Source: an uncultured Chloroflexia bacterium (GTDB taxonomy: Bacteria; Chloroflexota; Dehalococcoidia; SM23-28-2; RBG-16-64-32). From it: DNA of 64,000 nucleotides. The notes under the pieces are model-generated. The model searched no databases, was not told the origin of the DNA, and saw only the letters and a program-made list of their open reading frames with translations. The position numbers and the translations under genes are program-made. The stretch spans positions 727,905 to 791,904 of the forward strand of contig CAVTYE010000002.1 of NCBI GenBank assembly GCA_963738925.1, written 5' to 3'. Positions 14,292-33,097 of the stretch are shown here, piece after piece. Numbering within the stretch: position 1 is the stretch's first letter; each line of letters begins with the position of its first letter.

Positions 14292-16130
14292 ATGAGACGA
14301 TTTGATCTAAAAGAATTCGTGGACTACTTCCACGAGTCGGCACTCGAGTCGCCTTGGATCCTCTGGGTAGGTTCTGCAATCTCGCGTCCCGCCCCTTCGC
14401 TCCTGCCCATGGCTGAGCCAATCATCCGCGCCCTCTGTGCGCACCTGGCTGATACTCCGGAGACGAATCGGCTACTGGACACGGTAATGAGCGATTTTGC
14501 GCGGTGCGGGTCCCTGGACCTCGTCGCCCCATGGAAAAACGTCGCAATGACCACCGGCTGGCGAATGCCCTTCGAGGCCATCATGGGCGAGATTACCAGT
14601 CAAACCGGCAACCTGGTTCAGTCATTTCTCGATGCCCAGTTTCCGAGAAGCGCCGACTCCGAGCCGAATCTCAACCATGCAGCGATCGCGGCGATCGCCG
14701 AGTCTGGACTCGCCGATATCGTTGTGACAACTAACTTCGACGAGTGCCTGGACAAGATCTGGAGAGGAACAATCGTCGTTCCGACCGATGCCTTTGCTCC
14801 ACCGAACGCGACTCCCGCCCTCGTCAAAGTGCATGGTACGATCAGCGACTTCTCGACGGTCGCCGTCAATCCTGACGCCCTTGCAAAACGTTCGCGCGTG
14901 TCTTGGCAAGCGTCACTCGCGTCCCTCCTCAGGGGCCGCCGCGTTTTGTTCGTTGGTTACGGATTCCAGGACCGCTTTGACCTGACGCCGGCGTTGATAC
15001 AAGCAGAGCGAGACGGCGCCGAATTCTTCTGGGCGAACCAAAGCTTCCCCCCAACTCTCCCTCTCGCGACGATGTCCACAATCGACCACGACTTGAGTGA
15101 TCCAAATAGAAATCTGCTGCTCGCTCTCTGCCCAAATGCCCCCTCCAAAACCTCACCGGCCCGCTGGCCTTCAAACGAAGAGCAGGAGGCTTCTGTGACG
15201 TCGACTCTTCGAGGCCTGGCAGATCAGCCTTCTCTCGCCGAGCGCCTGAAGGCTTTCGCGTCCCTGTACTACTGGTTAGAAGACGGAAAGAGGTCTCTTC
15301 GCTTGTTCCGCGCCGCTCGCTCCGCTGACGCGACCAGCGTCGACACTCACGCACTCGCCCGCGCTTTCCTCCGGGCCAGGCGATATCGTCGGGCTGTCTT
15401 TCTATTTGATCGGATGCTGAACACGGAACTCCCAACAGACCCGGACGAGCGTTTGGACAAGACGATCGATTGGCACTGTGGGGCCGCCCATTGTGCCGCA
15501 GCCGGGGGGCGCGTACTAACAGCGCAGAAGCACTACGAACTGGCGAATGAGTCTCTTCGCTCCAGCGGCAAAGCCGCCGCGGAACTCGATCCCTATTTGA
15601 TGGATCAACTGCTGCGGGGAAGAGCTGGAAACTTGATCCGCCTCGCCGCTCGTTCATGGAGCTTTAGGGAGCGCGACGAATTGCTCTCGGCTGCTGAGGT
15701 GGATCTTGTGCTGCTGGCGTCACAGATCGATCGTCTTGAGTTGCGGGTACAGTACTTGATGAAGAGAGACCTTGCACGAATACAACTCATCCGCGGAAAC
15801 TCCTCGGACGCCGTGCGAGGCTTCGGTGAGGTTAAGGAATTCTTCGAATACTGGGGCGATCCCGATGGCTTGACAGTTGCCATGAGAGACCTGGCAGCCG
15901 CTGGCAAAGTGGGGGGATTCCGCTCGCTCGCACCAGCTGCGGCGGAGGCACGGAAGCGCGGTAGGTGGCTGGAGTGGATTAAGATTGAAGCCACACGCGT
16001 TGGCCTAACTGGCTATGGCCCTCTGGCTCCAGCGCAAGCGCGAATACGCAACGCGGCAATCGCCATCTGGGACGCGATCAAGGAGATGTTGCTAAGCACT
16101 TGGGAGTTTGCACTGGGCCGGAGGCCATAA
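14292..16130 (+). CDS. SIR2-like (SIR2_2 type) domain protein with C-terminal TPR-like helical repeats
   Basis: 612 aa. SIR2_2 motifs: ILWVGSAISRPA, VVTTNFDECL, LVKVHGTISD, VLFVGYGFQDRFD. The C-terminal ~300 aa is Leu/Ala/Arg-rich helical repeat (YYWLEDGKRSLRLFRAARS..., ARAFLRARRYRRAVFLFDRML...). Confidence 0.8.
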   Translation: MRRFDLKEFVDYFHESALESPWILWVGSAISRPAPSLLPMAEPIIRALCAHLADTPETNRLLDTVMSDFARCGSLDLVAPWKNVAMTTGWRMPFEAIMGEITSQTGNLVQSFLDAQFPRSADSEPNLNHAAIAAIAESGLADIVVTTNFDECLDKIWRGTIVVPTDAFAPPNATPALVKVHGTISDFSTVAVNPDALAKRSRVSWQASLASLLRGRRVLFVGYGFQDRFDLTPALIQAERDGAEFFWANQSFPPTLPLATMSTIDHDLSDPNRNLLLALCPNAPSKTSPARWPSNEEQEASVTSTLRGLADQPSLAERLKAFASLYYWLEDGKRSLRLFRAARSADATSVDTHALARAFLRARRYRRAVFLFDRMLNTELPTDPDERLDKTIDWHCGAAHCAAAGGRVLTAQKHYELANESLRSSGKAAAELDPYLMDQLLRGRAGNLIRLAARSWSFRERDELLSAAEVDLVLLASQIDRLELRVQYLMKRDLARIQLIRGNSSDAVRGFGEVKEFFEYWGDPDGLTVAMRDLAAAGKVGGFRSLAPAAAEARKRGRWLEWIKIEATRVGLTGYGPLAPAQARIRNAAIAIWDAIKEMLLSTWEFALGRRP

Positions 16131-21031: not shown

Positions 21032-22498
21032 TTACATGTAATAACGGTATGACAATTCAGGGTCTACGTCTTCGGGAACCTCCGCCATGATCGGTCCTAC
21101 TACGCCAGCCATTTGCATCGTTATCGGGAATTTGCCTCCAACAGACGCGGCATTCCAATTCATTTTGGTCAACGCCAACGTCTCTTCGCAAACTCTTCGT
21201 ATATCCGCACCCCCGCCCTGTATTTCAATCGGTTGTGGGATATGTGGCCCTGGGTAAGTGCCCCAATCGGGATAAAAGCCCGTCGTGTACAGACAGATCT
21301 TCTCTTCCCCCACAATAAGTGCCGTACCTCGGGGCGGAGGATATTTTGTCTCAGGCATCAAGCGAAGGTCCGATCCCCGAACAGAGAGAAGTTCCAGGGT
21401 TCCAATATCCGCGAAGCCCCGGTGGAAGCCAGCGACTTCGGCATCGGAATAGACGCTTGTCTTGTGGATGGTTACGCGCGTCGGCGTACGACCTGCCCGC
21501 TCGCGATACTCCGACACAACGGCACGGGCTAGATGAGCTGCTTGATCTTCGGAGAGGTGAACCTCCGTTCCATCGGTCCATGGGATACGATCTCCTCGAA
21601 GAACGAATCCATCGATCTCAGAAGAGAATGCCTGGGCAATACTGCTGTACATGAGTGTTCTAGTGGTGGTCACGAGACGATGGAAACTGATGCCGACGTA
21701 GCAAACGTGAGGTGAGTCATACGCTAGTCGCCAGGGTATACCTCCAGCCTTATAAAATAGGCCAACGCCGACGCTCCATGCCCGAGTGGCGGGATCGTCC
21801 TTCTCCGGGCCATCGAGAAACAAATGATCCGTCGCCAGTTGTACTGGCACTCGATCGCGAAGTAGCATCACCTTTCCCTTAATCGCCCGACGCAACGTTC
21901 TGAATGCCAAATGCTCCGCATCTCCAGACTCACCAAAGTCGAATGGCAACGGTAGTTGCTCCCGGCGCCCGCGCGGCGTCAAAGAGAGGCGTTGGGGGCC
22001 CGCCTGCTGAAGTGTAGCGGTAGTCCGCAAGACCTCTTCAGGTATGCCGCAGATGACTAGAGCTGGACCCATTTCCCGCGTTGTGAGAGCGCGAATGCCT
22101 TCTAAATAGAGGTCAACAATCGAGTCGAAGCGAGCATTCTTTGTAAGACCGAGCGCTCGAGCCAGCCGCAAGTCCGAAATCTCGTATTTCCACCGATCAG
22201 CTAATTCAAGAGACGAGTGAAAGACGCTGGCGAACCCGGGAAAGTCCGGGAATCGTCGCCTATTTGTTCCTCCTGATAGCACCGTTCCTCGGCATCTCTC
22301 GAACCAAGAGGTCGCCTTCGCAATCATCGAAGGGGGGCCGACTATACCGATTCTTGTTTGGCTTGGGTGGCCGCCACCATACTGAAGGCTAAATGGGCCA
22401 CTTCTGGTCAGCCCACTCTTTGGGTCAGCGTCTACGTCGCGACCGCCGAACTCTAGTTCAGGTTCAGGCAATTTACTTAGAAGGATTGGGATGGTCAT
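21032..22498 (-). CDS. Short prokaryotic Argonaute (MID-PIWI only)
   Basis: 488 aa, too short to carry N/PAZ domains. The N-terminal PELEFGGRDVDADPKSGLTRSGPF matches the short-pAgo L.F...D...GL..GP pattern. PIWI-like core: HVCYVGISFHRL, RVTIHKTS, KFPITMQMAGVVG. C-terminal ...LSYRYYM. No acidic residue at the GISF position, so an inactive PIWI is likely. The ATG overlaps the upstream stop (ATGA at 22495-22498). Confidence 0.85.
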   Translation of the reverse strand: MTIPILLSKLPEPELEFGGRDVDADPKSGLTRSGPFSLQYGGGHPSQTRIGIVGPPSMIAKATSWFERCRGTVLSGGTNRRRFPDFPGFASVFHSSLELADRWKYEISDLRLARALGLTKNARFDSIVDLYLEGIRALTTREMGPALVICGIPEEVLRTTATLQQAGPQRLSLTPRGRREQLPLPFDFGESGDAEHLAFRTLRRAIKGKVMLLRDRVPVQLATDHLFLDGPEKDDPATRAWSVGVGLFYKAGGIPWRLAYDSPHVCYVGISFHRLVTTTRTLMYSSIAQAFSSEIDGFVLRGDRIPWTDGTEVHLSEDQAAHLARAVVSEYRERAGRTPTRVTIHKTSVYSDAEVAGFHRGFADIGTLELLSVRGSDLRLMPETKYPPPRGTALIVGEEKICLYTTGFYPDWGTYPGPHIPQPIEIQGGGADIRRVCEETLALTKMNWNAASVGGKFPITMQMAGVVGPIMAEVPEDVDPELSYRYYM

Positions 22499-25065
22499 GT
22501 CTTGATTCTGGGCTCGTCCACGTTTATTCCGTCCTGCGGCATGTCGGCGGCCAATGGACGCGCACGAATGACGATGGGGTTGTCGCCTGTCAGCGTAAGA
22601 CGAATCTCATTCTCCTCAGGCTCCAATATCGATCGCCAGAAAAAGACATCTGCAAGTGCCTTCTGGTTGTAGTCCTCGGTGCTGTTTGACGTTGCGAGGG
22701 AGGTAGCTTCTCGCCCTCGAATGCGATCACGATCACCGTCGAGCGTAAAGACGTATGTGGGTGCAATTCTGAGGCACCAATAGCCAGAGATGTGCTCGAA
22801 ATGAAACTCAGCCGCCTTGTGAATGCAATAAGTTCGCGTTGCACCAGGCCACCACGCGACGCGACGACTAGGTTGATGAACGCGCGCCTGGTACTTAATC
22901 CTTCGTACGGGGCCCTTTGTGCATGGAAAATACGCTCGGCGGCGCTTCCAATCAACGCGTAATCCTTGTCGGCGTAGGACAGTAAGTAGTGTCTCGTTTA
23001 GAAGCTCAGTAATAATGTTCTTGCCGTCCGTTCGATCTTGGAAGTCACGCATGTCGAGCAGCGTGACGTTCGGGCCATCGAGCGGACCCACATAGAGTGC
23101 GGGAAACAGAGCGGGATTTACCAAGGCAAACAGTTGACCTTCGTGCGGAACGAACGGAGGACACGCCGCACGTTCACGAGTTGGCAAATCACGTCGGTCT
23201 CTCAACGTGGTTGGCATCGCGAAGAGGGTTCGCGGAAGCTCGATGACTTCAAATAGGTTAGTGTGTGCTCGAACCTGTAAATCGGATGGACGAGCCGTCG
23301 ACGTGCGAGAATCAACCGCAGCTTGGCGAGGTATCAGGCGTGCCGTGAAAGCGGTATTCTGAACTGAAACCTCGACTAGTAATTGTCCGTCAATTGCTTC
23401 CATGGATGCCAATGCATCTGACAGTCCAGATCCCGCCTTGTCTATAAGACCATTGCCGAACCAAAGGTCGGCTATCACAGGATTGCGGTATCCAGTGATC
23501 CCTGGCCCCCTCTCTCCACGAGCAATTCGTCGTTGCAGAAGATCAGGTGGTATGCGCGACTCGGACTCGTCATAGTCTTCGCCCAGGAGCCGACGCAGCA
23601 ATGAGGGTTCGATTCCTCCGGGACTCTCGATGGATATCTGATTCGTTTCGACGCGAATTACGATCGGGTCTGGCGATTCATAGCTCCGGTGAACTAAAGC
23701 GTTTGCGAGTACTTCTTTGATTGCATCTCGGGAATAGCGTCTGACCGTTTTAGAGCGTTGCCCCTTCATCCGGACGGGTGGATTCACATCTGATATGACG
23801 CTCATGGCGGATTCGAACTGTGTCCAGAGCGTGCCATCGAGGGCCGTGGGGGGTTTTCCTGGAAGTCGAATCTCTACCCAGGCGCCTCGTGCCACAACGC
23901 GAGGATCTTTCTCGAGCAAGAGGACACCTGCGTTTGTAAGGTTGGTTGCATCGCCGTCGCGAACCGCAAGTCCCGCCGTGGCCAAAAGATTGAAGGCAGC
24001 ATCTCTTTCTGTGGAGTCCGAGGAAAATCGCTCCGCATAGTCCGTCATTTCGATTGGCAGCGTGTCAGGAGCGCGCACTGGCGAGGTCGGCAATCTTAAG
24101 TCAAATGTCAGCGGCGCGCCGGTGGGATATGTATAGCCCTGAGCGCCCTCTGTCCCCGAGGACCGCCAGCACTCACGAAGCTCCGTCAGCAGCGCGTCAA
24201 AGTCGGTAATCGCGACCGAATTGAAGTTGCGTCCTAAAGCATCTGCCAAGTCAGATACCATGGGTGCCAATCCGGAGCTTGGCCTTCGTGAGCACCAGTA
24301 GACCCCATGTTTGAAACGATCGACAGACTGCACGTTCTGAAACAAAAGGTCATGCATTACAGACCTCTCAGAACCACGGTATCCAACAACGACCAATGGG
24401 TGGTCGCGCAGCATGGGAAGTAGACGAGCAACTAGAAGCTCATCCAACGATTCTGTCTCACCCGGGAGGTTGCGATCTTTGTAGTATTCGGCTTGGCCGT
24501 GAAGATAAATGACCTGGGGATATGCGGGCGCCGTTGTGATCGCAACATACTCTTCTTGTTTACCGATCGTGATAAGCGACCCGGGGCCATAAGCGGTGCG
24601 AATCAAATCGTCAAAGTTAGTCGTCAATACGGAATGAATGATTCGTCGCCGCAGTAGCGAAGCGAGACACTGGTATCCGACGTTGGGAGGAGCGGTCTGC
24701 TTTAGTAGGCTTAGAAGAAATCGTCGGCGAAATTCTCTCGGACTGTCTAGCAACCGAATGAGATCGGGGAACATGTCTGCCCAATCTCTGTCCGCACGGT
24801 ACCAGTGTTCCGATTCGAGCACCGTGGATATGTCGCCGGGGCGAATGCGCGGATCGTCAGGTAGCCATCCTTGTCGTTTGGCGTAAAGCCAACGAGCACC
24901 AAGTCGAACCAGATCGCCGCTCGCTGGAATTCCGGAGCTAACGGACGCACCCGCCCCCAGCAGAAAGATGGGGTCCGGGCCATCGATAAGGCGTGAGAAG
25001 AGGCTCCTGACGTCCAGCGGTTTAGTTGCAGCGATTGTGTCAGACATGGAGTGTGTCGCTGCCAT
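22495..25065 (-). CDS. SIR2 / HATPase_c_4-like / putative APAZ protein (pAgo partner), 856 aa
   Basis: N-terminal SIR2_2 motifs: IFLLGAGASVSSGIP, VLTTNFDDLI, VIYLHGQAEY, LVVVGYRGSERS. Central segment: AIKEVLANALVHRSYESPDPIVIRVETNQISIESPGG ... YRNPVIADLWFGNGLIDKAGSGLSDAL. This is the HATPase_c_4 signature seen in Schlafen/AlbA_2-type proteins. The C-terminal ~250 aa (RAYFPCTKGPVRRIKYQ...WCLRIAPTYVFTLDGD...) lies where APAZ is expected in pAgo partners. The APAZ assignment rests on position only. Confidence 0.8.
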   Translation of the reverse strand: MAATHSMSDTIAATKPLDVRSLFSRLIDGPDPIFLLGAGASVSSGIPASGDLVRLGARWLYAKRQGWLPDDPRIRPGDISTVLESEHWYRADRDWADMFPDLIRLLDSPREFRRRFLLSLLKQTAPPNVGYQCLASLLRRRIIHSVLTTNFDDLIRTAYGPGSLITIGKQEEYVAITTAPAYPQVIYLHGQAEYYKDRNLPGETESLDELLVARLLPMLRDHPLVVVGYRGSERSVMHDLLFQNVQSVDRFKHGVYWCSRRPSSGLAPMVSDLADALGRNFNSVAITDFDALLTELRECWRSSGTEGAQGYTYPTGAPLTFDLRLPTSPVRAPDTLPIEMTDYAERFSSDSTERDAAFNLLATAGLAVRDGDATNLTNAGVLLLEKDPRVVARGAWVEIRLPGKPPTALDGTLWTQFESAMSVISDVNPPVRMKGQRSKTVRRYSRDAIKEVLANALVHRSYESPDPIVIRVETNQISIESPGGIEPSLLRRLLGEDYDESESRIPPDLLQRRIARGERGPGITGYRNPVIADLWFGNGLIDKAGSGLSDALASMEAIDGQLLVEVSVQNTAFTARLIPRQAAVDSRTSTARPSDLQVRAHTNLFEVIELPRTLFAMPTTLRDRRDLPTRERAACPPFVPHEGQLFALVNPALFPALYVGPLDGPNVTLLDMRDFQDRTDGKNIITELLNETLLTVLRRQGLRVDWKRRRAYFPCTKGPVRRIKYQARVHQPSRRVAWWPGATRTYCIHKAAEFHFEHISGYWCLRIAPTYVFTLDGDRDRIRGREATSLATSNSTEDYNQKALADVFFWRSILEPEENEIRLTLTGDNPIVIRARPLAADMPQDGINVDEPRIKT

Positions 25066-25243: not shown

Positions 25244-26656
25244 ATGGAAAGTGACCTCGACCTAAAGAGGGCTCGCGCGTCGCTAGATGAGTTTGCGGCA
25301 CTCCTCGCGGCCAAACCAAAGGAATCCGAGTGGCAGCGTCTCTTCTCATCAAATCCACACATCCTCTCGCAAGCGCTACCCTTGCGCCTGGAACCAGGCG
25401 ACATCAGACCGGGTGGTAGACCGGGTCAGAGCGAGGCAGACTTCATAATCCACCCTCGGGCCGTTGGTCCGATCCCGTTTTACGGCGTAATTGAACTGAA
25501 GCGCAACGATGCTTCGGTCGTGCGAGTCAAGCGAGCCGACCTCTTGGAGTTGACCAGTGACGCACAGACAGCAGTTAGGCAGGCCCAAAATTACGCGCGA
25601 AAACTGCGCAAGGCACTTCTTGTGGGAGGTGAGCGTTCACTGATCCTCGGAAACCCAGCCTACAACTTCATCATCATGGGTATGTCCGATGAGATCGCAA
25701 GAAAGGTAGCGGAAGAAGTCTTGGCCAAACAAATGGCGGGACTTCTCCCTGGTGGATGTCACCTGGTCAACTACGACCAACTATTCGAGCAATTCAAGGC
25801 AAGCATCCCTCCGACCTTCCTCCAACTCGTTCCTGCTTTGCCATCGTTTCCTAGGCCACGTTGGGATTTGAACCAAACATCGCGCCTCCTGGATCGCCTG
25901 GTCCAATCGAAACCCACCAGACCCGCGGAGCCTTGGGCGGCGGCAAGATCCCCGAGCGGTAGCGGACGGTTCTGTGTAGTCGCGGATGGATTGGCAAGCT
26001 CATCCGCGTCAAGCGAGGAACTGATGCGGGACATTTCGTCCAAATCATCAAATGACATTCAGTTCCGCGCCGTCAGCTACAGCGGAGTAGGCCGGAGCTA
26101 TGGCCGATATGACACGCATAGGTCTCTGAGTTCGCTGGCAAGATCTCTACGAGAATATCTGCCTCAAAGGCCGTTCGACTCGACAATCTCCTATGTCGGC
26201 ATTGGCATCGGCTCTAATGTAATTGTTGGAGGCCTTGCGAGGGCGATGTCGGAACTCCCAACGTCCGAGTCCTCCCGATGGGCTTCGTCAATTCGCAGGC
26301 TCGTGCTCGTCGGACCTATGTTCAGAGCTCCTACGTGGATGCAGGATTGGCTCCGGGACGGCGCTCGAGTAATTCCGGCGCCAATGGCTGAGTTGATGGC
26401 GGGTGGTGACGGGCCATACACCGTTGAAGGTCTACGAATAATACGGCAATTGGGAATACCCGTGACAGTAATCCTTAGCGTTGCCGATGGATTGGCAGAG
26501 TACGATGAGGGCCTTATTGGCAGCCTCACTCAAATGGGCGCCGAGGTGATTAGGGTGACAGCGGAATCGACAGGCCGTGAGCCATTCGCGGCTCACTTCT
26601 CGACCTATCGGTCACCTTCGGTGATGCGGATCGTTGCTTCCCTGGTTAACAGTTAG
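25244..26656 (+). CDS. DUF4263 (Shedu-type PD-(D/E)xK nuclease)-like N-terminal domain fused to an unknown ~240-aa C-terminal domain
   Basis: 470 aa. The N-terminal half has ESEWQRLFSSNPHILSQAL...SEADFIIH...FYGVIELKRNDASVV...AVRQAQNYARKL...YNFIIMG. This matches the DUF4263 pattern (E..W..f...nP.il ... D ... vEiK ... Q ... iiG). The C-terminal half (ISYVGIGIGSNVIVGGLARAM, RRLVLVGPMFRAPTW) looks alpha/beta, but no clean GxSxG nucleophile elbow was seen. Confidence 0.65.
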   Translation: MESDLDLKRARASLDEFAALLAAKPKESEWQRLFSSNPHILSQALPLRLEPGDIRPGGRPGQSEADFIIHPRAVGPIPFYGVIELKRNDASVVRVKRADLLELTSDAQTAVRQAQNYARKLRKALLVGGERSLILGNPAYNFIIMGMSDEIARKVAEEVLAKQMAGLLPGGCHLVNYDQLFEQFKASIPPTFLQLVPALPSFPRPRWDLNQTSRLLDRLVQSKPTRPAEPWAAARSPSGSGRFCVVADGLASSSASSEELMRDISSKSSNDIQFRAVSYSGVGRSYGRYDTHRSLSSLARSLREYLPQRPFDSTISYVGIGIGSNVIVGGLARAMSELPTSESSRWASSIRRLVLVGPMFRAPTWMQDWLRDGARVIPAPMAELMAGGDGPYTVEGLRIIRQLGIPVTVILSVADGLAEYDEGLIGSLTQMGAEVIRVTAESTGREPFAAHFSTYRSPSVMRIVASLVNS

Positions 26657-26769
26657 CGCCATCCCGCATCAAACTTCGGAGGACAAACAGACGTAAGGCT
26701 TCCTCGAGCCTGGGCATGGGTGCACAGGAAAGTCGAGTCAGCCGATAGTCTTAGCTCCGGGCTTGCCGC

Positions 26770-27284
26770 CTAGACTGCGCCTTTGCGTCGGTTGTCCTCC
26801 AGGCACAGCATCTGGCAGTTGGCTCCGTTTGTCTTCCCGCGCTTCGACCACGGGGTGATGTGGTCCGCTTCCATCTCGCCGATCTCGAAATGCTTGCCGC
26901 ACTTGGGACAGGTTGTAGAGGGTGCCCCAGTCGATGGTCTTCATCTCCTTGCGATACGTGGTGAACGTCAACTCCACCCACGAGATGACGGCTTGGAAGT
27001 ATGACCACAGCTCGTTGGCGTTCGGATCATGCTGGTGGTCCGACATGTACTGCTCGATCTTGTCGCCGAACAGCCACGATATGGCCGTTTCCAGAAAATC
27101 CTGGCGGATCGGTGTGCCAGTCACGTACTTGCTGCCTATGGCTCTGTCCGATGAGGTCTTCACCCTCTGCCGTCAAGGGGCGGCGCCAACGGTGAGCATA
27201 AACGACCTCCGTCCCGTAGGGCCCCTTCCATTCATCCCTCCCCGATCGCGCCTCTTTGCCCTTGACGCCATTCACCTCGCTCAC
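26770..27284 (-). pseudogene. Decayed DUF262-associated HNH endonuclease gene (frameshifts and internal deletion)
   Basis: One frame gives ...FLETAISWLFGDKIEQYMSDHQHDPNANELWSYFQAVISWVELTFTTYRKEMKTIDWGTLYNL. A shifted frame continues CPKCGKHFEIGEMEADHITPWSKRGKTNGANCQMLCLEDNRRKGAV, an HNH motif with its stop at 26772-26770. A further shift occurs near 27150. No DGQQR-type DUF262 N-terminal domain is present. Confidence 0.6.
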
Positions 27285-27453
27285 TGTCCTTCATGGCTTG
27301 TTTCAAGCTGAGCCCACTTCAAGTCTACGAACGCAAGATCGGGCGATGTCAAAGCGTCAATTCATACGCAGTCCACTGGCGGCAGTGTTTGATGGGCGTC
27401 TATAGTCATGGACAAACGTCCTGGAACGTGCCAGGCAGCCGTGAGGATTCCAA

Positions 27454-30400
27454 ATGCCTTTGCAGACTCTGGATCCAGATCTCGATCTTCTTCGGGAGGA
27501 GTACGTTCTCGTCCAAGCATGGAAGAAGACATCAAACTACATTCGCCAGCACAACTGGTATGCAGATACTGTTGAGCTCGATCTGGCGAGCTCTGATCTC
27601 CAAGGGTTTCTTCAACAGCTCAAACAACGTCTGACCGAACCGAGTCAATGGAGATCGGGACTATTGCGACTTGTTCCCGCACCAAAGAATCAGAAGTGGG
27701 TCATTGCGAATGGCGCCTGGACTCCCGCGGAGTCCGTAGAACCAATCGATAGGCTCCGTCCGCTTGCCAATGTCAGACTCATCGATCAAGTTATCGCCAC
27801 CGCCATTGCCTTGTGTATTGCGGACCGAGTCGAGACTATACAAGGAGTTCCACGAGTCTCAATAACTGACAACCTGGCGAGAAGGCGAGTCATATCCTAT
27901 GGCAATCGGCTCTTCTGTCAGGAGGTAGAAGGCGAACTTTTGCATCGCTGGGGGTCGTCGACCTTGTATCGCCGCTTCTTTGAAGACTACCGCAACTTTC
28001 TGAAGCGGCCACAGGCCGTCGCGGAGTCTCTTAGAACGCAGCCAAACTCCGATGTGGTCATAGTTAAGTCAGACCTCAGAAATTTTTACGATCGCGTTTC
28101 GCCGGCGCTATTGCAGGCCAAACTTGCGGCTCTTATGCGTCCCTATGACGATGCGGGGTTCCTTGATCTCGCCAGTCGGGTCCTAAACTGGCACTGGGAT
28201 GCCCAGGACCTACCGCAAGTCCAGGATTACGCGCGCCGAGCCGGTATCCAAGACTTCAACGTTGTCGCATTGCCGCAAGGCCTAGCAACAGCAGGGTTCT
28301 TCGCGAACGTGGCGCTCCTTGACTTCGATGATGCTCTACGAAACTCACTCGGCGAAGAAATCGAGCCCGGAGTAAAGCTCGAGGACGCCTGCCGATATGT
28401 GGACGACCTCCGCCTAGTCTTGATGGTCGAGGGCTCGCGGCAACTCAGTGAAATTAAGACAATCGTTTATCGTTGGGTTCAGAACTTGCTGGACCTGAAT
28501 GCTGAAGACTTGCTCGCATCCGAGGAAAAGACAGTACCAGCGCCATTTGGCGCGGCGGAACGGCCATTGGTGCCGCAAAGCTGGAAGATGAACCGCATCC
28601 AGCATGCAATATCAGGGGGATTCGATCCCACTCAAGCGGAGGAGATTCTTGCGTCTGTACAGGCTCTAGTGCAATCTCAGCAGAGGCTCGCCGAACGGCT
28701 TGAAGTGGCAGATAGCCAAGATGAGCCGTGGCGAATGTCGCCAGCCCCAGATGTGGAAGACGACACGGTGTCAAGATTCGCTGCTCATCGCTTCAGGACC
28801 ACTTATCGGTCGCTACGTCCGCTCCTCGAAGATACTGCTCCGCAAGATGAGGCCCCTCATCGCTCAGGTTTAGAGCCGCTACGCACGAAAGCAGAACTTG
28901 ACGCGGAAGCCCAAGCATTCGCCTTCGACCTTGTAGAAAAATGGGTGCGCGATCCTTCACATGTCCGACTTCTTCGAATTGGATTGGACATCTGGCCGGA
29001 TTCACAGCTCCTCGACAGCGTTTTGGAGCTCCTGCGGCCCTACACGACGGCTAGACGAGCGACTTCAGCCGACTTCGTCGCTTGGTACGCCCTGGCGGAA
29101 GTCTTCCGCGCTGGCGCTACCGAAACCGGCTTGGTTACTGACGAGGAGATGTTGCCAGATGCCGTCGACTTCGCGGGTTTCAAGGCCACCCTTGCTAACG
29201 AGGCTCGCCGACTTCTGTCCCTGCCGGTATCCAGCGTGCCATGGTACGTGCGACAGCAAGCCTTGCTATATTTGGCCGCCTTCGACCCGAACGACGTCGA
29301 CCTTGGGCGCGACCGAACCGAGGAAACACGAAGGTACCGAGACTTAATTCGGTTCCTGAATCGCGGAGGGAAAGGATGGAGCGAGCGGAAGTTTGCCACG
29401 TACTCAGTCTTGGCGAGAAAGAGCTTCCTTTCAGCCGGCGATGCAATCAAGCTTGTTCGCGGCCGACTGAATCGAGGAATTCTGAACATGATCGGAGCGA
29501 TGGATCCATCATTCGCAGCTGAGATTGTCGCCACCGGACCATCCACCGGTATTTCGCGTCGACTATCCCGCGACCTAGGAGTGGAGCCGAAGCCTGGGAC
29601 TCTCCGGTCGCTTGTCTTGGGTGAGTCAAAGGGCAAAGTTCGGAATGAACGGACGATCCTGCGATTCGCGGAGCAGTTCTTATCGCAGGCACCCGGACTC
29701 ACGGACGAGGTAATAACACCCTCTGATGCATTTCTGGAGCTGTCCGATAGCAGGACGCGAGATGAGACAGACGTATTGCTTACTCGCTTGAAACTCAAGC
29801 CACTTAGAGTTCAGCGTGAACAGTCGATGTATCGTCCGCCGGACTGGTGCGATCCAACTGAACGATGGCGGTTTCAATTGGGCTATCTCATACGGTTTAT
29901 TCTCGCTGGCCAACCTGATTTCACAAGAATTGTCAGACGTTCTAGGCGTATCCAGGCCGAGGGTGGCCGCTATCGCCGACCAGAGAGCAATTGGTACCAG
30001 CGCCTGTACGGCATGTTCACGGCGCACGCAGCATTTGGTGACGACTGGTTAGCCGTGTCCGACTGGCTGGAACTCTTTCTCTTTGAGTTGCTCCTTTGGC
30101 CCGGATGTGAGCCATCCGATCTAGATTTCGTTCGCCGAGGACGTTTAGCAACGTTACGTGCCGTGCGAAAGAGGCTAAGCGACTTGGAAGAGCTTCAGGG
30201 ACCGGCTCGCAGCGTCTTCATTCTTCCCCTGAATGTACGTCGACCGGACAGCACGGCGGAAGACAGGAAGCTGAGGGGTTGCGTCGTCCAGACCGTTTTA
30301 CCCCGGATGAAAGATCTTCTGAAAGACGCTACGGTCTCTGACCCAGCTGCAAGACGCGTACAACGCCGTCATCTCTCCACGATTCTAGAGTCCGTTAAAA

Positions 30401-31152
30401 GAATGCTGGCGGTCAGAGGTACGCACGAACCCGACGGATCGAGGCTGGATTGGTTGATTCTTCCGGAGCTTTCTGTTCACCCGGACGACGTCGGAACCCA
30501 TTTGAGGCGCTTTGCGCTTCAGCACAAGACAATAATTCTCGCCGGGCTCACTTACCAGAGTCAGGGCCCAGGCGGGCCACTCGTCAACATGGGAGTATGG
30601 ATCGTCCCCGAATTGTCGGCGAGCCGCGGTTTGCAGATTAGGCAGCGCTACCAAGGCAAGCAGTATCTAGCACAGGATGAGAAGGGCCTGGGCATTCAGG
30701 GTTATCGACCATGTCAGTGGATCATCCAGTATCCGTGGGCGAATGATAAACCGCCCCTTCGCCTCACAGCCTCAATCTGTTACGACGCAACCGACGTTGA
30801 TCTTGCATCGGATCTTCGTGAAAACTCCGACGTGTACGCGATCCCCGCATTAAATAAGGACGTCAACACGTTTGACCAGATGGCGCTCTCTCTTCAGTAC
30901 CACATGTTCCAGATGGTCATTGTCGCAAATAATGGGGAATTTGGCGGGAGCAATGCCTATGTGCCCTATCGGGAGCAATACGATCGCCAAGTCTTCCATC
31001 TTCACGGGCAACCGCAGGCGTCGATAGGATTCATCGAAATCGATCCGATCGAAGACTTCCTCTCCCGAAAGAAGATCGGGAGCAAGAAGTCCGCCGCGCC
31101 GTCTCGCCCTGTCGGTCGGGCGTTTAAGTATCCCCCTGCAGGACTGACCTAG
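27454..31152 (+). CDS. Reverse transcriptase fused to a C-terminal nitrilase (C-N hydrolase) domain; DRT type 1 / UG1-like
   Basis: 1,232 aa. RT motifs: RPLANVRLIDQVIATAIALCIADRVE (motifs 1-2), VVIVKSDLRNFYDRVS (A), LPQGLATAGFFANVAL (B), CRYVDDLRLV (C; YVDD codons at 28396-28407). A long helical middle region follows. The C-terminal nitrilase-like triad context is WLILPELSVH (Glu codon 30466-30468), RYQGKQYLAQDE (Lys) and LTASICYDATD (Cys codon 30778-30780). Confidence 0.85.
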   Translation: MPLQTLDPDLDLLREEYVLVQAWKKTSNYIRQHNWYADTVELDLASSDLQGFLQQLKQRLTEPSQWRSGLLRLVPAPKNQKWVIANGAWTPAESVEPIDRLRPLANVRLIDQVIATAIALCIADRVETIQGVPRVSITDNLARRRVISYGNRLFCQEVEGELLHRWGSSTLYRRFFEDYRNFLKRPQAVAESLRTQPNSDVVIVKSDLRNFYDRVSPALLQAKLAALMRPYDDAGFLDLASRVLNWHWDAQDLPQVQDYARRAGIQDFNVVALPQGLATAGFFANVALLDFDDALRNSLGEEIEPGVKLEDACRYVDDLRLVLMVEGSRQLSEIKTIVYRWVQNLLDLNAEDLLASEEKTVPAPFGAAERPLVPQSWKMNRIQHAISGGFDPTQAEEILASVQALVQSQQRLAERLEVADSQDEPWRMSPAPDVEDDTVSRFAAHRFRTTYRSLRPLLEDTAPQDEAPHRSGLEPLRTKAELDAEAQAFAFDLVEKWVRDPSHVRLLRIGLDIWPDSQLLDSVLELLRPYTTARRATSADFVAWYALAEVFRAGATETGLVTDEEMLPDAVDFAGFKATLANEARRLLSLPVSSVPWYVRQQALLYLAAFDPNDVDLGRDRTEETRRYRDLIRFLNRGGKGWSERKFATYSVLARKSFLSAGDAIKLVRGRLNRGILNMIGAMDPSFAAEIVATGPSTGISRRLSRDLGVEPKPGTLRSLVLGESKGKVRNERTILRFAEQFLSQAPGLTDEVITPSDAFLELSDSRTRDETDVLLTRLKLKPLRVQREQSMYRPPDWCDPTERWRFQLGYLIRFILAGQPDFTRIVRRSRRIQAEGGRYRRPESNWYQRLYGMFTAHAAFGDDWLAVSDWLELFLFELLLWPGCEPSDLDFVRRGRLATLRAVRKRLSDLEELQGPARSVFILPLNVRRPDSTAEDRKLRGCVVQTVLPRMKDLLKDATVSDPAARRVQRRHLSTILESVKRMLAVRGTHEPDGSRLDWLILPELSVHPDDVGTHLRRFALQHKTIILAGLTYQSQGPGGPLVNMGVWIVPELSASRGLQIRQRYQGKQYLAQDEKGLGIQGYRPCQWIIQYPWANDKPPLRLTASICYDATDVDLASDLRENSDVYAIPALNKDVNTFDQMALSLQYHMFQMVIVANNGEFGGSNAYVPYREQYDRQVFHLHGQPQASIGFIEIDPIEDFLSRKKIGSKKSAAPSRPVGRAFKYPPAGLT

Positions 31153-31157
31153 TAGAA

Positions 31158-31979
31158 CTAAGCAGATTCGCCGGTTTGCGACTCGCCAATCACGGCCTTC
31201 ACGTCATCTGGGAAGTCTCCCTTCAGGATCCAGGTCAAATAATCGGGGGCTTCTGACTTCACCTGTGTTAGTGGTACTCCCCTGTATTTTCCAAAGTTCA
31301 AACAGATTTCATCGTTTGCTCTGATTAGCAGGCCGTGCTCGTCTATCCAATTCTCGTCGACCCTTCTCGGCGCAGAAATCTGATCAAGCTCCCGCAGTTC
31401 GCGCGTGAGATCGGGATACCGCTCCAGTTGTCCGAGTAGCACGTCCATGGAAGCCAGCGTGTCGGCCTCTGATGAGTGGGCGCCGTTGTGCTCTCGCCCT
31501 CGATAGAACTGGAGCGCTGCTGTCAGATCTCGAGGCTCGCGCTCGAAATAGATCGCGAGCGCATCGACGATGGCGCGATCGTCAATAGAAAACCAGTGCC
31601 CAGCTCGGCGGAACTCAGCGCTGAGTACTTTCAAATCGAATCGTGCTATTCCGAACCCAGCCAAATCGCATCCATCAAGATGCCTAGCCAATGAACGCGC
31701 TATTCTCCGAAATGTTGGCTCGTGTTCGACGTCGGCAGTAGTTATGCCGTGAACGGCGGTAGCTTCCTCCGGCACTGGCATTTCCGGATTCACCCTGCGC
31801 GTAACGACATTCAAGGCACCAGATGGAGACACCTTCGCAACTGAGACCTCCACTACGCGCGCGGTCATTGGGTTAGTACCCGTGGTTTCGAGATCGATAA
31901 AAGCCAATGGGCGGTCTAATTTCAAACTCCGAGCAAGTTTCGCCGCCACCTCGATATATGGGGAATTTGCTTCTGCCAT
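31158..31979 (-). CDS. DEDDh 3'-5' exonuclease (DnaQ/epsilon-like) with ExoX-like C-terminal motif
   Basis: 273 aa. Exo I AFIDLETTG, Exo II LAGFGIARFDLKVL, Exo III HSSEADTLAS. C-terminal FGKYRGVPLTQV...PDYLTWIL. Its stop lies 5 nt from the RT-nitrilase stop (convergent). Confidence 0.85.
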   Translation of the reverse strand: MAEANSPYIEVAAKLARSLKLDRPLAFIDLETTGTNPMTARVVEVSVAKVSPSGALNVVTRRVNPEMPVPEEATAVHGITTADVEHEPTFRRIARSLARHLDGCDLAGFGIARFDLKVLSAEFRRAGHWFSIDDRAIVDALAIYFEREPRDLTAALQFYRGREHNGAHSSEADTLASMDVLLGQLERYPDLTRELRELDQISAPRRVDENWIDEHGLLIRANDEICLNFGKYRGVPLTQVKSEAPDYLTWILKGDFPDDVKAVIGESQTGESA

Positions 31980-32453
31980 CGTTAATCAGCCTCTCGAAGC
32001 TGCGCTCAGGTGAGCATGATACAACGCTATGCGCAAAGAACCGTCTGCACGCGGCGAAATGCATCCAAGTGCCGCCATGGTGTCTGTAACTACGCGCTCC
32101 ATCGTCACGGGCGAACTTCCGAAGTCTGCTGTCCTTGTGCACGACGCGGAAGCCGCCGAGCAATTGAACGGCTATCGCGGCGTCAGAACCGTGCGGCTCC
32201 TGTCCGGATTGCACGCCTTTTGGGCCAGGGTCGGCGCCATCCATCTGACTTTCCCCCAGTGCAGCGAGTAGTTCGCCGATTATAGCGTTATCAAGACGGC
32301 GGCTGGCCCCGCTGGGTGGTTCACTGGCGATCTATGTTGACACGGTCACGACTCCGACGGGTCCGTCGCGGCTGAACGGCAACAGCGCGCATTTCACCGC
32401 CGGACGCTCGCACAGCGTGGCACAAGGGACCAAGAGACTCAACAATTCGTATC

Positions 32454-32515
32454 TGGAGCGGGAGACGGGGCTCGAACCCGCGACCCTCTGCTTGGGAAGC
32501 AGATGCTCTACCAAC
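32454..32515 (-). pseudogene. tRNA-Gly(CCC) 3' portion only (D-loop to CCA); candidate att remnant
   Basis: The reverse strand reads ...GTTGGTAGAGC-A-TCTGC-TTCCCAA-GCAGA-GGGTC-GCGGG-TTCGAGC-CCCGT-CTCCCGC-T-CCA. No GCGGGAG 5' acceptor strand or proper D-stem lies upstream (the sequence there is GGCGGGTCCTTGGCGTTTCAGTT). Confidence 0.6.
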
Positions 32516-32676
32516 AACTGAAACGCCAAGGACCCGCCTGCAAACGAAACTGCAAACGAACGCGCCATAACAGGGGGCTACCAGCCGTCATCTTATCGGT
32601 CGTTGCGCCCGGAGAACAGATACCACAAGGCACCACAAGGAACGGCCGAGTATGGGAAATGACCGGCCTGACTTAA

Positions 32677-32721
32677 TTTGGGGCCAGGAGGCCCTCGGTT
32701 CGAATCCGAGCGCCCCGACCA
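32677..32721 (+). pseudogene. tRNA-Pro(UGG) 3' half only (anticodon loop to CCA); candidate att remnant
   Basis: TTTGGGG-CCAGG-AGGCC-CTCGG-TTCGAAT-CCGAG-CGCCCCG-A-CCA. The 5 nt upstream (CTTAA) cannot pair with CCAGG. No CGGGGCG 5' acceptor strand was found upstream anywhere in the inspected spacer down to the tRNA-Gly fragment (~32516). Confidence 0.6.
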
Positions 32722-32730
32722 ACCTCCAAC

Positions 32731-32964
32731 CTAGTCCGCCGCCTCTTTGACTCGCTCCTTCAAGCCGTCCAGCCAGTCCGCCGAGGCGTGCGCCTTCTCC
32801 TGGAAGGTCAGGCTCACCTCCGGGGTGAACACGCCCTGCAGATACGTGTCGGCGCGGTTCATGCCTTGCTCCCAGCCGGGCTGCTGTTGGGCGTCAGTCC
32901 CGCTGTTGCTGAAGGCGAGTATCACTCCGATGCCTACGAACGCTAAAAGTATCATGACCTTCAT
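32731..32964 (-). CDS. Small secreted/anchored hypothetical protein
   Basis: The start was moved to the ATG at 32964 (AGGAGG 7 nt upstream). MKVMILLAFVGIGVILAFSNSG is signal-like. 77 aa. Confidence 0.55.
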   Translation of the reverse strand: MKVMILLAFVGIGVILAFSNSGTDAQQQPGWEQGMNRADTYLQGVFTPEVSLTFQEKAHASADWLDGLKERVKEAAD

Positions 32965-33097
32965 GGACGTCTCCTCCTTCACCCGCATTCTCCGCCGGCG
33001 CTCTCACCGGCCTCTCGCCGCGCTAGCGTTAAGGCTCCCGCGGTCCCTTAACCGTCTCGCTTCCGCTCCCCGTCCCGCGCGATACGATGATCCCGCT

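Follow-up and report, generated by a model that had tools for sequence, protein, structure and literature searches.

What does a giant gene joining a reverse transcriptase (RT) to a nitrilase do in the genome of an uncultured Chloroflexia bacterium, and does its product act alone? The gene, drt1a, lies in a 64,000-nucleotide stretch of that genome (assembly GCA_963738925.1, contig CAVTYE010000002.1, positions 727,905 to 791,904 of the forward strand; hereafter the window), is single-copy in the 2.7-Mb genome, and is assigned here to the type 1 defense-associated reverse transcriptases (DRT1). We found that drt1a and a neighboring gene for a DEDDh exonuclease form a conserved two-gene block in one branch of DRT1, a candidate two-gene variant of the system. 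The drt1a product is very likely a functional-looking, single-polypeptide abortive-infection enzyme with a DRT1-like mechanism, paired with the exonuclease in its branch.

The Gene Encodes a Full-Length DRT1 Protein

The drt1a open reading frame (ORF) is a single frame of 1232 codons for amino acids (aa) that starts with ATG and contains zero internal stops. The features to which the text refers are as follows.

27454–31152, plus strand: drt1a, fusion of RT, alpha-helical repeat and nitrilase, DRT type 1, UG1
27443–27447, plus strand: GAGGA Shine–Dalgarno sequence, 6 nt before the ATG; also the point from which the module is homologous at the DNA level to that of the nearest relative
27751–28503, plus strand: RT (palm and fingers) domain, about aa 100–350, containing motif A Asp207 and motif C YVDD
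28396–28407, plus strand: YVDD catalytic motif, aa 315–318; Asp317/Asp318 correspond to Asp324/Asp325 of the characterized DRT1
28441–30198, plus strand: alpha-helical repeat region, about aa 330–915, from AlphaFold2 models
28612–28614, plus strand: Ser387 in an invariant SGGFD loop, predicted priming residue, equivalent to Ser402 of 9YFD in the bridging alignment
30220–31068, plus strand: nitrilase-superfamily (C-N hydrolase) domain, about aa 923–1205, from Foldseek and alignment to the 9YFD nitrilase domain
30466–30468, 30658–30660, 30679–30681 and 30778–30780, plus strand: nitrilase tetrad Glu1005, Lys1069, Glu1076 and Cys1109
31123–31143, plus strand: C-terminal lid F-K1225-Y-P-P-A1229-G (K1219...A1223 of 9YFD), which completes or occludes a neighboring nitrilase site
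31158–31979, minus strand: DEDDh (DnaQ-like) 3'-5' exonuclease of 273 aa with an ExoX-like C-terminal tail, tail-to-tail with drt1a

Among the PADLOC profiles, the Drt1a model PDLC03745 matched the protein at E=0 and 1224 bits (protein 1–1230, profile 1–1175 of 1176), RTasNitrilase matched its C-terminus (5.6e-68), and RT_UG5-nitrilase matched the nitrilase part only (aa 995–1197, 7e-29, 99 bits); the next RT models outside DRT1 scored 44 bits or less. The NCBIfam models of group II introns, retrons, Drt2 and Drt3 gave 15–21 bits against cutoffs of 200–390. The sole match in a PDB search was 9YFD, "Defense-associated reverse transcriptase 1" (E=1.5e-135), in two blocks covering 5–612 and 814–1213. 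Judged from its sequence, the window protein is almost certainly a full-length Drt1a/UG1, a class 3 UG/Abi RT–nitrilase. The preliminary description of this DNA had placed it in the DRT1/UG1 class, and the profile comparison upholds this: the RT stands apart from introns and retrons, and the C-terminus has a nitrilase-superfamily fold with its tetrad. The gene is an ordinary DRT1, of a family that the defense catalogs already contain; within the family, it falls in a large environmental branch, that of PDLC03745, apart from the enterobacterial/Vibrio branch.

The domains were delimited with profiles and with AlphaFold2 models built on homologue alignments. The Pfam RVT_1 match was sub-threshold (aa 190–344), and Asp207 and YVDD315–318 are unchanged in 121 of 121 relatives. 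In the model of aa 330–800 (predicted local distance difference test score, pLDDT, 85) nearly all of the chain is alpha-helix, with Ser387 sitting in a loop after a helix, and the helices run on to about aa 915 in the model of aa 783–1232, giving a helical total of about 585 aa. Because Pfam CN_hydrolase was silent, with no match even at E≤1, the nitrilase fold was demonstrated by structure search: the model of aa 783–1232 (pLDDT 83; predicted template modeling score 0.85) ends in an alpha-beta-beta-alpha domain for which Foldseek, used with a library without 9YFD, returned aliphatic amidases, Nit2/Nit3, formamidases, beta-alanine synthase and nitrilase 4 (probability 1.00, E ~1e-9). The tetrad residues lie in the contexts LPELS (Glu1005), YQGKQY (Lys1069) and SICYD (Cys1109); these three are unchanged in 121 of 121 relatives, and Glu1076 is Glu in 119 of 121. 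All features listed in the preliminary description could thus be located, YVDD, Glu1005 and Cys1109 at the residues it gave and the Lys in the YQGKQY context it named, and both the helical middle region of about 600 aa and the C-N hydrolase-like C-terminus that it had read from the letters are recovered in the models. Between nitrilase and lid, the linker at aa 1200–1223 (31050–31122) is rich in Ser, Ala, Pro and Lys and longer in the clade of the window protein.

Residues Essential in the Characterized DRT1 Are Retained

The preliminary description had also regarded the template, product and nitrilase role of DRT1 as unsettled, a view overtaken in 2026 by the cryo-EM structure of a DRT1, PDB 9YFD (Neville et al., Nat Struct Mol Biol 2026; PMC13275509). 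According to that study, synthesis is template-free and protein-primed, and the product consists of Ser-linked, A-rich single-stranded DNA (ssDNA) adducts, of which ~17–30 nt are protected and which are required for tetramers and filaments (PMC13275509). The nitrilase (Cys1116) is the effector, assembled and locked by the DNA-driven filament, and the last 19 residues are exchanged between tetramers, closing the neighbor's nitrilase site (PMC13275509). Defense is abolished in the D324N/D325N mutant and by S402A; the lid residues Lys1219 and Ala1223 are essential as well, K1219A and A1223F abolishing defense, and the Dda helicase of phage T4 is necessary and insufficient for triggering (PMC13275509).

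To transfer these residues to the window protein, we used two homologue sets. One comprised 120 homologues of the window protein (48–69% identity). The other was searched with the 9YFD sequence as read from alignments, its unaligned middle padded with X, and formed a graded series whose identity to 9YFD fell from 90% to 37%; the K. pneumoniae "antiviral reverse transcriptase Drt1a" belonged to it. The bridging alignment (L-INS-i) was built from 159 proteins, two DRT1s from fetched loci and the 9YFD fragment, with 161 sequences tallied; it included 75 intermediate sequences, the K. pneumoniae Drt1a and P0242, a 90%-identical proxy of 9YFD. A PDB search with the 48-aa C-terminal tail gave no match, and the tail was mapped via P0242 instead. 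The resulting equivalences are as follows.

D324/D325 of 9YFD, D317/D318 of the window protein: catalytic Asp residues of the RT
S402 of 9YFD, S387 of the window protein: priming Ser
E1017 of 9YFD, E1005 of the window protein: nitrilase Glu
C1116 of 9YFD, C1109 of the window protein: nitrilase Cys
K1219 of 9YFD, K1225 of the window protein: lid
A1223 of 9YFD, A1229 of the window protein: lid

Across the three subgroups of this alignment, the mapped catalytic and priming columns are identical in 161 of 161 sequences and the lid columns show one exception each, the column set K-x-x-P-A-G being kept in all three. Lys1069 and the whole YVDD motif are invariant in this alignment too. In a first, shallower MAFFT alignment Ser387 had fallen two residues off Ser402; that placement was superseded by the bridging alignment, which settled the ambiguity because the two residues inserted in the 9YFD group are missing from the intermediates.

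An Exonuclease Gene Is Paired with drt1a in One DRT1 Branch

The stop codons of drt1a and of the exonuclease gene lie 5 nt apart. The exonuclease matches Pfam RNase_T (7.3e-17) and ExoX-like_C, and the residues D29, E31, D115, H168 and D173 (D-x-E, D, H-x4-D) are unchanged in 23 relatives. Its profile matches were to 3'-5' DNA exonucleases only, namely the DinG N-terminal exonuclease, Pol III epsilon, Cas2-DEDDh, ExoX and TREX1. A single-sequence PDB search gave no match at E≤1e-3, and a search of a plasmid collection returned distant Bacteroidales homologues only. The likeness to ExoX (4FZX), Pol III epsilon, Cas2-DEDDh and DinG consists of the RNase_T fold signature, the five DEDDh residues and the ExoX-like C-terminal motif, whereas the partner exonuclease differs from ExoX/DnaQ-like enzymes in forming a distinct branch tied to DRT1 and in carrying an extra conserved C-terminal region of ~80 aa. 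Membership in the family PDC-S48 was considered and rejected, the match (1.9e-27) spanning profile positions 6–175 of 411, the exonuclease domain only.

The same arrangement recurs at related loci. The gene for the closest DRT1, P0002 (69% identity), likewise converges with one for the exonuclease (73% identity), and the blastn block shared by the window and locus L081 is exactly drt1a plus exonuclease (27443–31904, 67.5% nucleotide identity), with unrelated flanks. Besides the window, convergent pairs were found at L081/82/84, at L083, where the DRT1 P0003 stands beside a Gabija-like pair, at L087/88 (DRT1 P0020), and at L090, which was found from the exonuclease side and has a 1229-aa DRT1 of 46% identity. 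At L091/L092 the DRT1 gene is followed after 20 nt by a co-directional exonuclease gene, an identical exonuclease being carried by the short contigs L093 and L094, and L097, whose exonuclease is 67% identical to that of L092, is co-directional in the same way. Counting lineages at <90% exonuclease identity, the pair thus occurs in seven independent lineages, convergent in five and co-directional in two. At another locus (L086, 7832–9496) the exonuclease gene abuts a DRT1 remnant (aa 1017–1232, 57% identity) and the gene there has IS110-family transposase domains, which looks like a module decaying by insertion sequence (IS) insertion. We detected no third conserved gene in the drt1a–exonuclease module.

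The paired DRT1s are also related to one another. A tree of 121 DRT1s groups the window protein with P0002, P0003 and P0020 (clade support 0.99–1.0). The DRT1s of L090 and L092 fall with these four to one side, separate from the other 117 homologues listed. These six exonuclease-linked DRT1s share a replacement of Trp1224 by Phe or Tyr beside the lid lysine. Among 80 other DRT1 loci from many phyla (44–52% identity), no such exonuclease was present save for one weak 37-bit match, which excludes the exonuclease as a general partner of DRT1. Exonuclease relatives at 38–51% identity have no DRT1 and lie beside glycosyltransferase, dnaN or fumarylacetoacetase-type genes, that is, in housekeeping contexts. 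The exonuclease partner goes unmentioned in the UG/Abi survey (PMC9226505) and in the DRT1 structure paper (PMC13275509), and a full-text literature search likewise gave nothing relevant. Among the few loci seen, some have the exonuclease without DRT1, and none has a DRT1 of this branch without the exonuclease; such an imbalance would suit a protective, antitoxin-like role, in numbers too small to weigh.

Alternative Readings of the Locus

A functional link between the exonuclease and DRT1 is the reading that we somewhat favor. Several points weigh against it: the evidence for the link consists of gene neighborhood; the genes are convergent in five of the seven lineages, where co-transcription is impossible; and the exonuclease can persist without DRT1, as at L085, where it is 90% identical to that of L087, and at L089. 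The same points serve the alternative that the exonuclease is an unrelated neighbor, an independent defense, repair or mobile-element gene, and that DRT1 works alone as it does in the majority of the family. Most DRT1 loci lack the exonuclease, the characterized DRT1 protects as a single gene (PMC13275509), and the exonuclease domain does match PDC-S48, a candidate defense family. We nevertheless regard an unrelated neighbor as rather unlikely. Adjacency is retained across the seven lineages down to 44% DRT1 identity while the other neighbors all differ, and it outlasts a change in relative orientation; the two genes adjoin very closely, their reading frames overlapping by 12 nt at one extreme and standing 38 nt apart at the other (co-directional gaps being given as 20–80 nt); within their family the linked exonucleases branch off separately, and the remaining members are found in housekeeping contexts; and the PDC-S48 match is confined to the short profile span given above.

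Two further readings concern drt1a itself, and both have very little in their favor. One is that the RT copies a noncoding RNA (ncRNA) encoded at the locus, in 27164–27453 or 31980–32450, as class 2 DRTs (DRT2, DRT9 and DRT10) do. There is room for such an RNA in the 290-bp upstream spacer and in the 470-bp stretch beyond the exonuclease, neither of which holds a convincing ORF. An Rfam scan of 26600–33000 at E≤1, however, returned nothing beyond a tRNA fragment and an aceE-II match at chance level, and the upstream spacer folded no better than its shuffles (z = 0.03 on the plus strand and 0.5 on the minus strand), with z-scores of 0.5–1.1 for 31980–32450 and for minus-strand folding. Nor are the flanks conserved, either in the 69%-identical relative or in five others: DNA homology to the closest relative, L081, starts at 27443, 11 nt before the ATG, and six related upstream regions gave no cross-matches. 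An RNA template encoded at the locus is thus highly improbable, and the absence of ncRNA signals, in keeping with the preliminary description, which had seen no obvious structured ncRNA upstream, is consistent with the template-free mechanism of DRT1. The other reading makes drt1a an inactive relic of a decaying island. Its upstream neighbor is indeed a truncated restriction-enzyme-like stump, the island is surrounded by IS3 copies and tRNA-fragment scars, and IS elements and gene stumps abound in the genome; yet the 3.7-kb frame is unbroken, each family-invariant position checked is retained in Drt1a, and none of the five DEDDh residues is lost from the partner exonuclease, which leaves a dead gene scarcely credible.

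What the spacer probably does hold is a promoter. A TATA-like hexamer lies ~45–55 nt before the drt1a start in the window (TATAGT, 27402–27407) and at L081, L083, L087, L090 and L092, the remaining upstream DNA being unalignable across these six loci, and the hexamer is plausibly a −10 promoter element.

27164–27442, no strand assigned: upstream spacer; ncRNA not detected, probably promoter only

A Model for the Window Protein and Its Partner

By analogy with 9YFD, the window Drt1a probably shares the core mechanism of the characterized DRT1. Set against this analogy are the distance between the two proteins, ~30% identity as estimated by eye over the aligned parts, with 222 middle residues left unaligned by phmmer, and the fate of the Arg1210/Tyr1215 "pseudoknot" pair, which is kept in the 9YFD-like and intermediate groups and is replaced by variable residues or gaps in the window clade. 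These contacts are a feature of the solved filament rather than a criterion of the family profile, and without them filament geometry, packing or locking may differ from 9YFD.

In a mechanism of this kind, the RT would start DNA without a template on the Ser387 hydroxyl and produce short, A-rich ssDNA that stays covalently bound to the protein. Driven by the DNA adducts, nitrilase-mediated tetramers would form and stack up as filaments. There the K1225-x-P-P-A1229-G lid of one protomer would shut the Glu1005/Lys1069/Glu1076/Cys1109 site of another, so that the effector would be assembled and yet locked. The lock would be undone by phage replication functions (for T4, the ssDNA helicase Dda plus further factors), and the freed nitrilase would act on an essential amide or amine metabolite and abort the infection. 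Neither an ncRNA nor the membrane partner Drt1b would be needed.

The exonuclease may enter this scheme by trimming or resetting the adduct and thereby tuning filament length and dormancy. Because the adduct would be anchored by its 5' end and have a free 3' end, a 3'-5' exonuclease is the kind of enzyme to be expected for its shortening or removal. E. coli ExoI cuts in-vitro adducts back to the protected 17–30 nt, and adducts are shorter in vivo than in vitro (PMC13275509), which together agree with exonucleolytic trimming playing a part; where the host carries a DRT1 of this branch, such trimming may come from a dedicated partner. Gene neighborhood and enzyme polarity point to trimming of the Ser-linked adduct as the way in which the exonuclease acts, a proposal that we put forward tentatively. 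A bolder version, to which we would give no better chances, makes the exonuclease an obligate second component whose continuous 3' trimming would set adduct length and with it how dormant filament and active nitrilase are balanced. If this were true, the trigger would be a phage disturbing that balance, for example through ssDNA-binding proteins, helicases, exonuclease inhibitors or competing 3' ends, and a polymerase/exonuclease "timer" would be built into the defense system.

The locus is informative about DRT1 in two respects. The priming Ser, RT Asp, nitrilase tetrad and lid Lys and Ala are kept in an environmental branch ~30% identical to 9YFD and the pseudoknot contacts are not, which shows which features are general. 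The exonuclease partner bears on the shortness of adducts in vivo and on what phage infection changes, and in a two-gene module the synthesis and removal of adducts would be separable by point mutations.

Relation to Known RT-Based Systems

The closest known systems are the DRT1 of 9YFD and the K. pneumoniae DRT type 1 (Gao et al. 2020, as cited in PMC9226505), which have the same three-part architecture (1232 vs. 1229 aa). With 9YFD the window protein has in common the RT Asp residues, the priming Ser, the nitrilase tetrad and the K-x-x-P-A-G lid, and known DRT1s likewise are located in defense islands and have no ncRNA signals. The differences from 9YFD are a priming loop that is two residues shorter (SGGFD vs. 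G-[TA]-S-S), the absent Arg1210/Tyr1215 contacts, the longer pre-lid linker and the presence of the exonuclease. The two-gene form of DRT1, Drt1a with Drt1b, differs from the window locus in its second gene: Drt1b stands beside 33 of 175 UG1 genes (~18–19%), ~81% being without it, and PADLOC found none among the 10 small flanking ORFs in the window.

UG5, which occurs as UG5-large or as UG5-small with a separate nitrilase (PMC13436386, PMC9226505), resembles the window protein in combining an RT with a C-N hydrolase effector, and DRT5 synthesis is also protein-primed and template-free (PMC13275509). The RT and middle region of the window protein match Drt1a instead, with 1224 against 99 bits. 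The likeness to retrons, by homology, lies in RT-made DNA serving as a structural "antitoxin" that keeps an effector inactive within a filament until phage infection, and the DRT1 authors speak of a "minimal retron" (PMC13275509). Retrons differ in that DRT1 has no ncRNA template and its DNA is covalently protein-primed and semirandom in sequence; the retron models reached 21 bits with the window protein.

Genomic Setting

The drt1a–exonuclease module lies at the edge of a low-GC (guanine plus cytosine) defense island. The GC content is 55–61% from the window start to ~32 kb and 63–69% thereafter, and the left half of the window has the look of island DNA gained by horizontal transfer, with several defense systems and IS copies. 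Apart from IS3 transposase genes, the low-GC island contains the first five of the following features, and the last two lie at the GC step.

14292–16130: SIR2-domain protein
21032–22498: short prokaryotic Argonaute (pAgo)
22495–25065: SIR2-APAZ partner of the pAgo
25244–26656: Shedu-like protein
26738–27163, minus strand: restriction-enzyme-like stump of 141 aa, directly upstream of drt1a
~32456–32519, minus strand: 3' fragment of tRNA-Gly(CCC) (Rfam 32465–32519)
~32672–32722, plus strand: second tRNA-like 3' end (T-arm, acceptor and CCA)

The stump matches a type II restriction-enzyme profile of 372 positions over positions 188–265 only (2e-23), and toward the C-terminus its frame seems to be wrong; the missing 5' part would overlap the drt1a–exonuclease block. 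At the island boundary the two tRNA 3' fragments face each other, and ARAGORN found no complete tRNA at the GC step. The Gly-tRNA fragment is repeated 17 times in the genome, clustered on two contigs, which suggests repeated integrations at tRNA-Gly.

Other DRT1 loci have recurrent surroundings of their own. In 12–14 of the 80 main-branch loci (L003, L004 and ~10 others), drt1a lies on the same strand between two conserved genes: ~90 nt upstream is an Eco57I-type methylase/Peptidase_S24 gene, with an SNF2-type helicase further upstream, and ~26 nt downstream is a gene for a 1262-aa superfamily 1 helicase. The domains of the latter, AAA_30 and UvrD_C_2, we take to be those of RecD/Dda-type helicases. 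In two Alphaproteobacteria genomes (L061 and L064), a short pAgo 28–31% identical to that of the window lies <6 kb from DRT1, so the co-location of pAgo and DRT1 recurs beyond the window.

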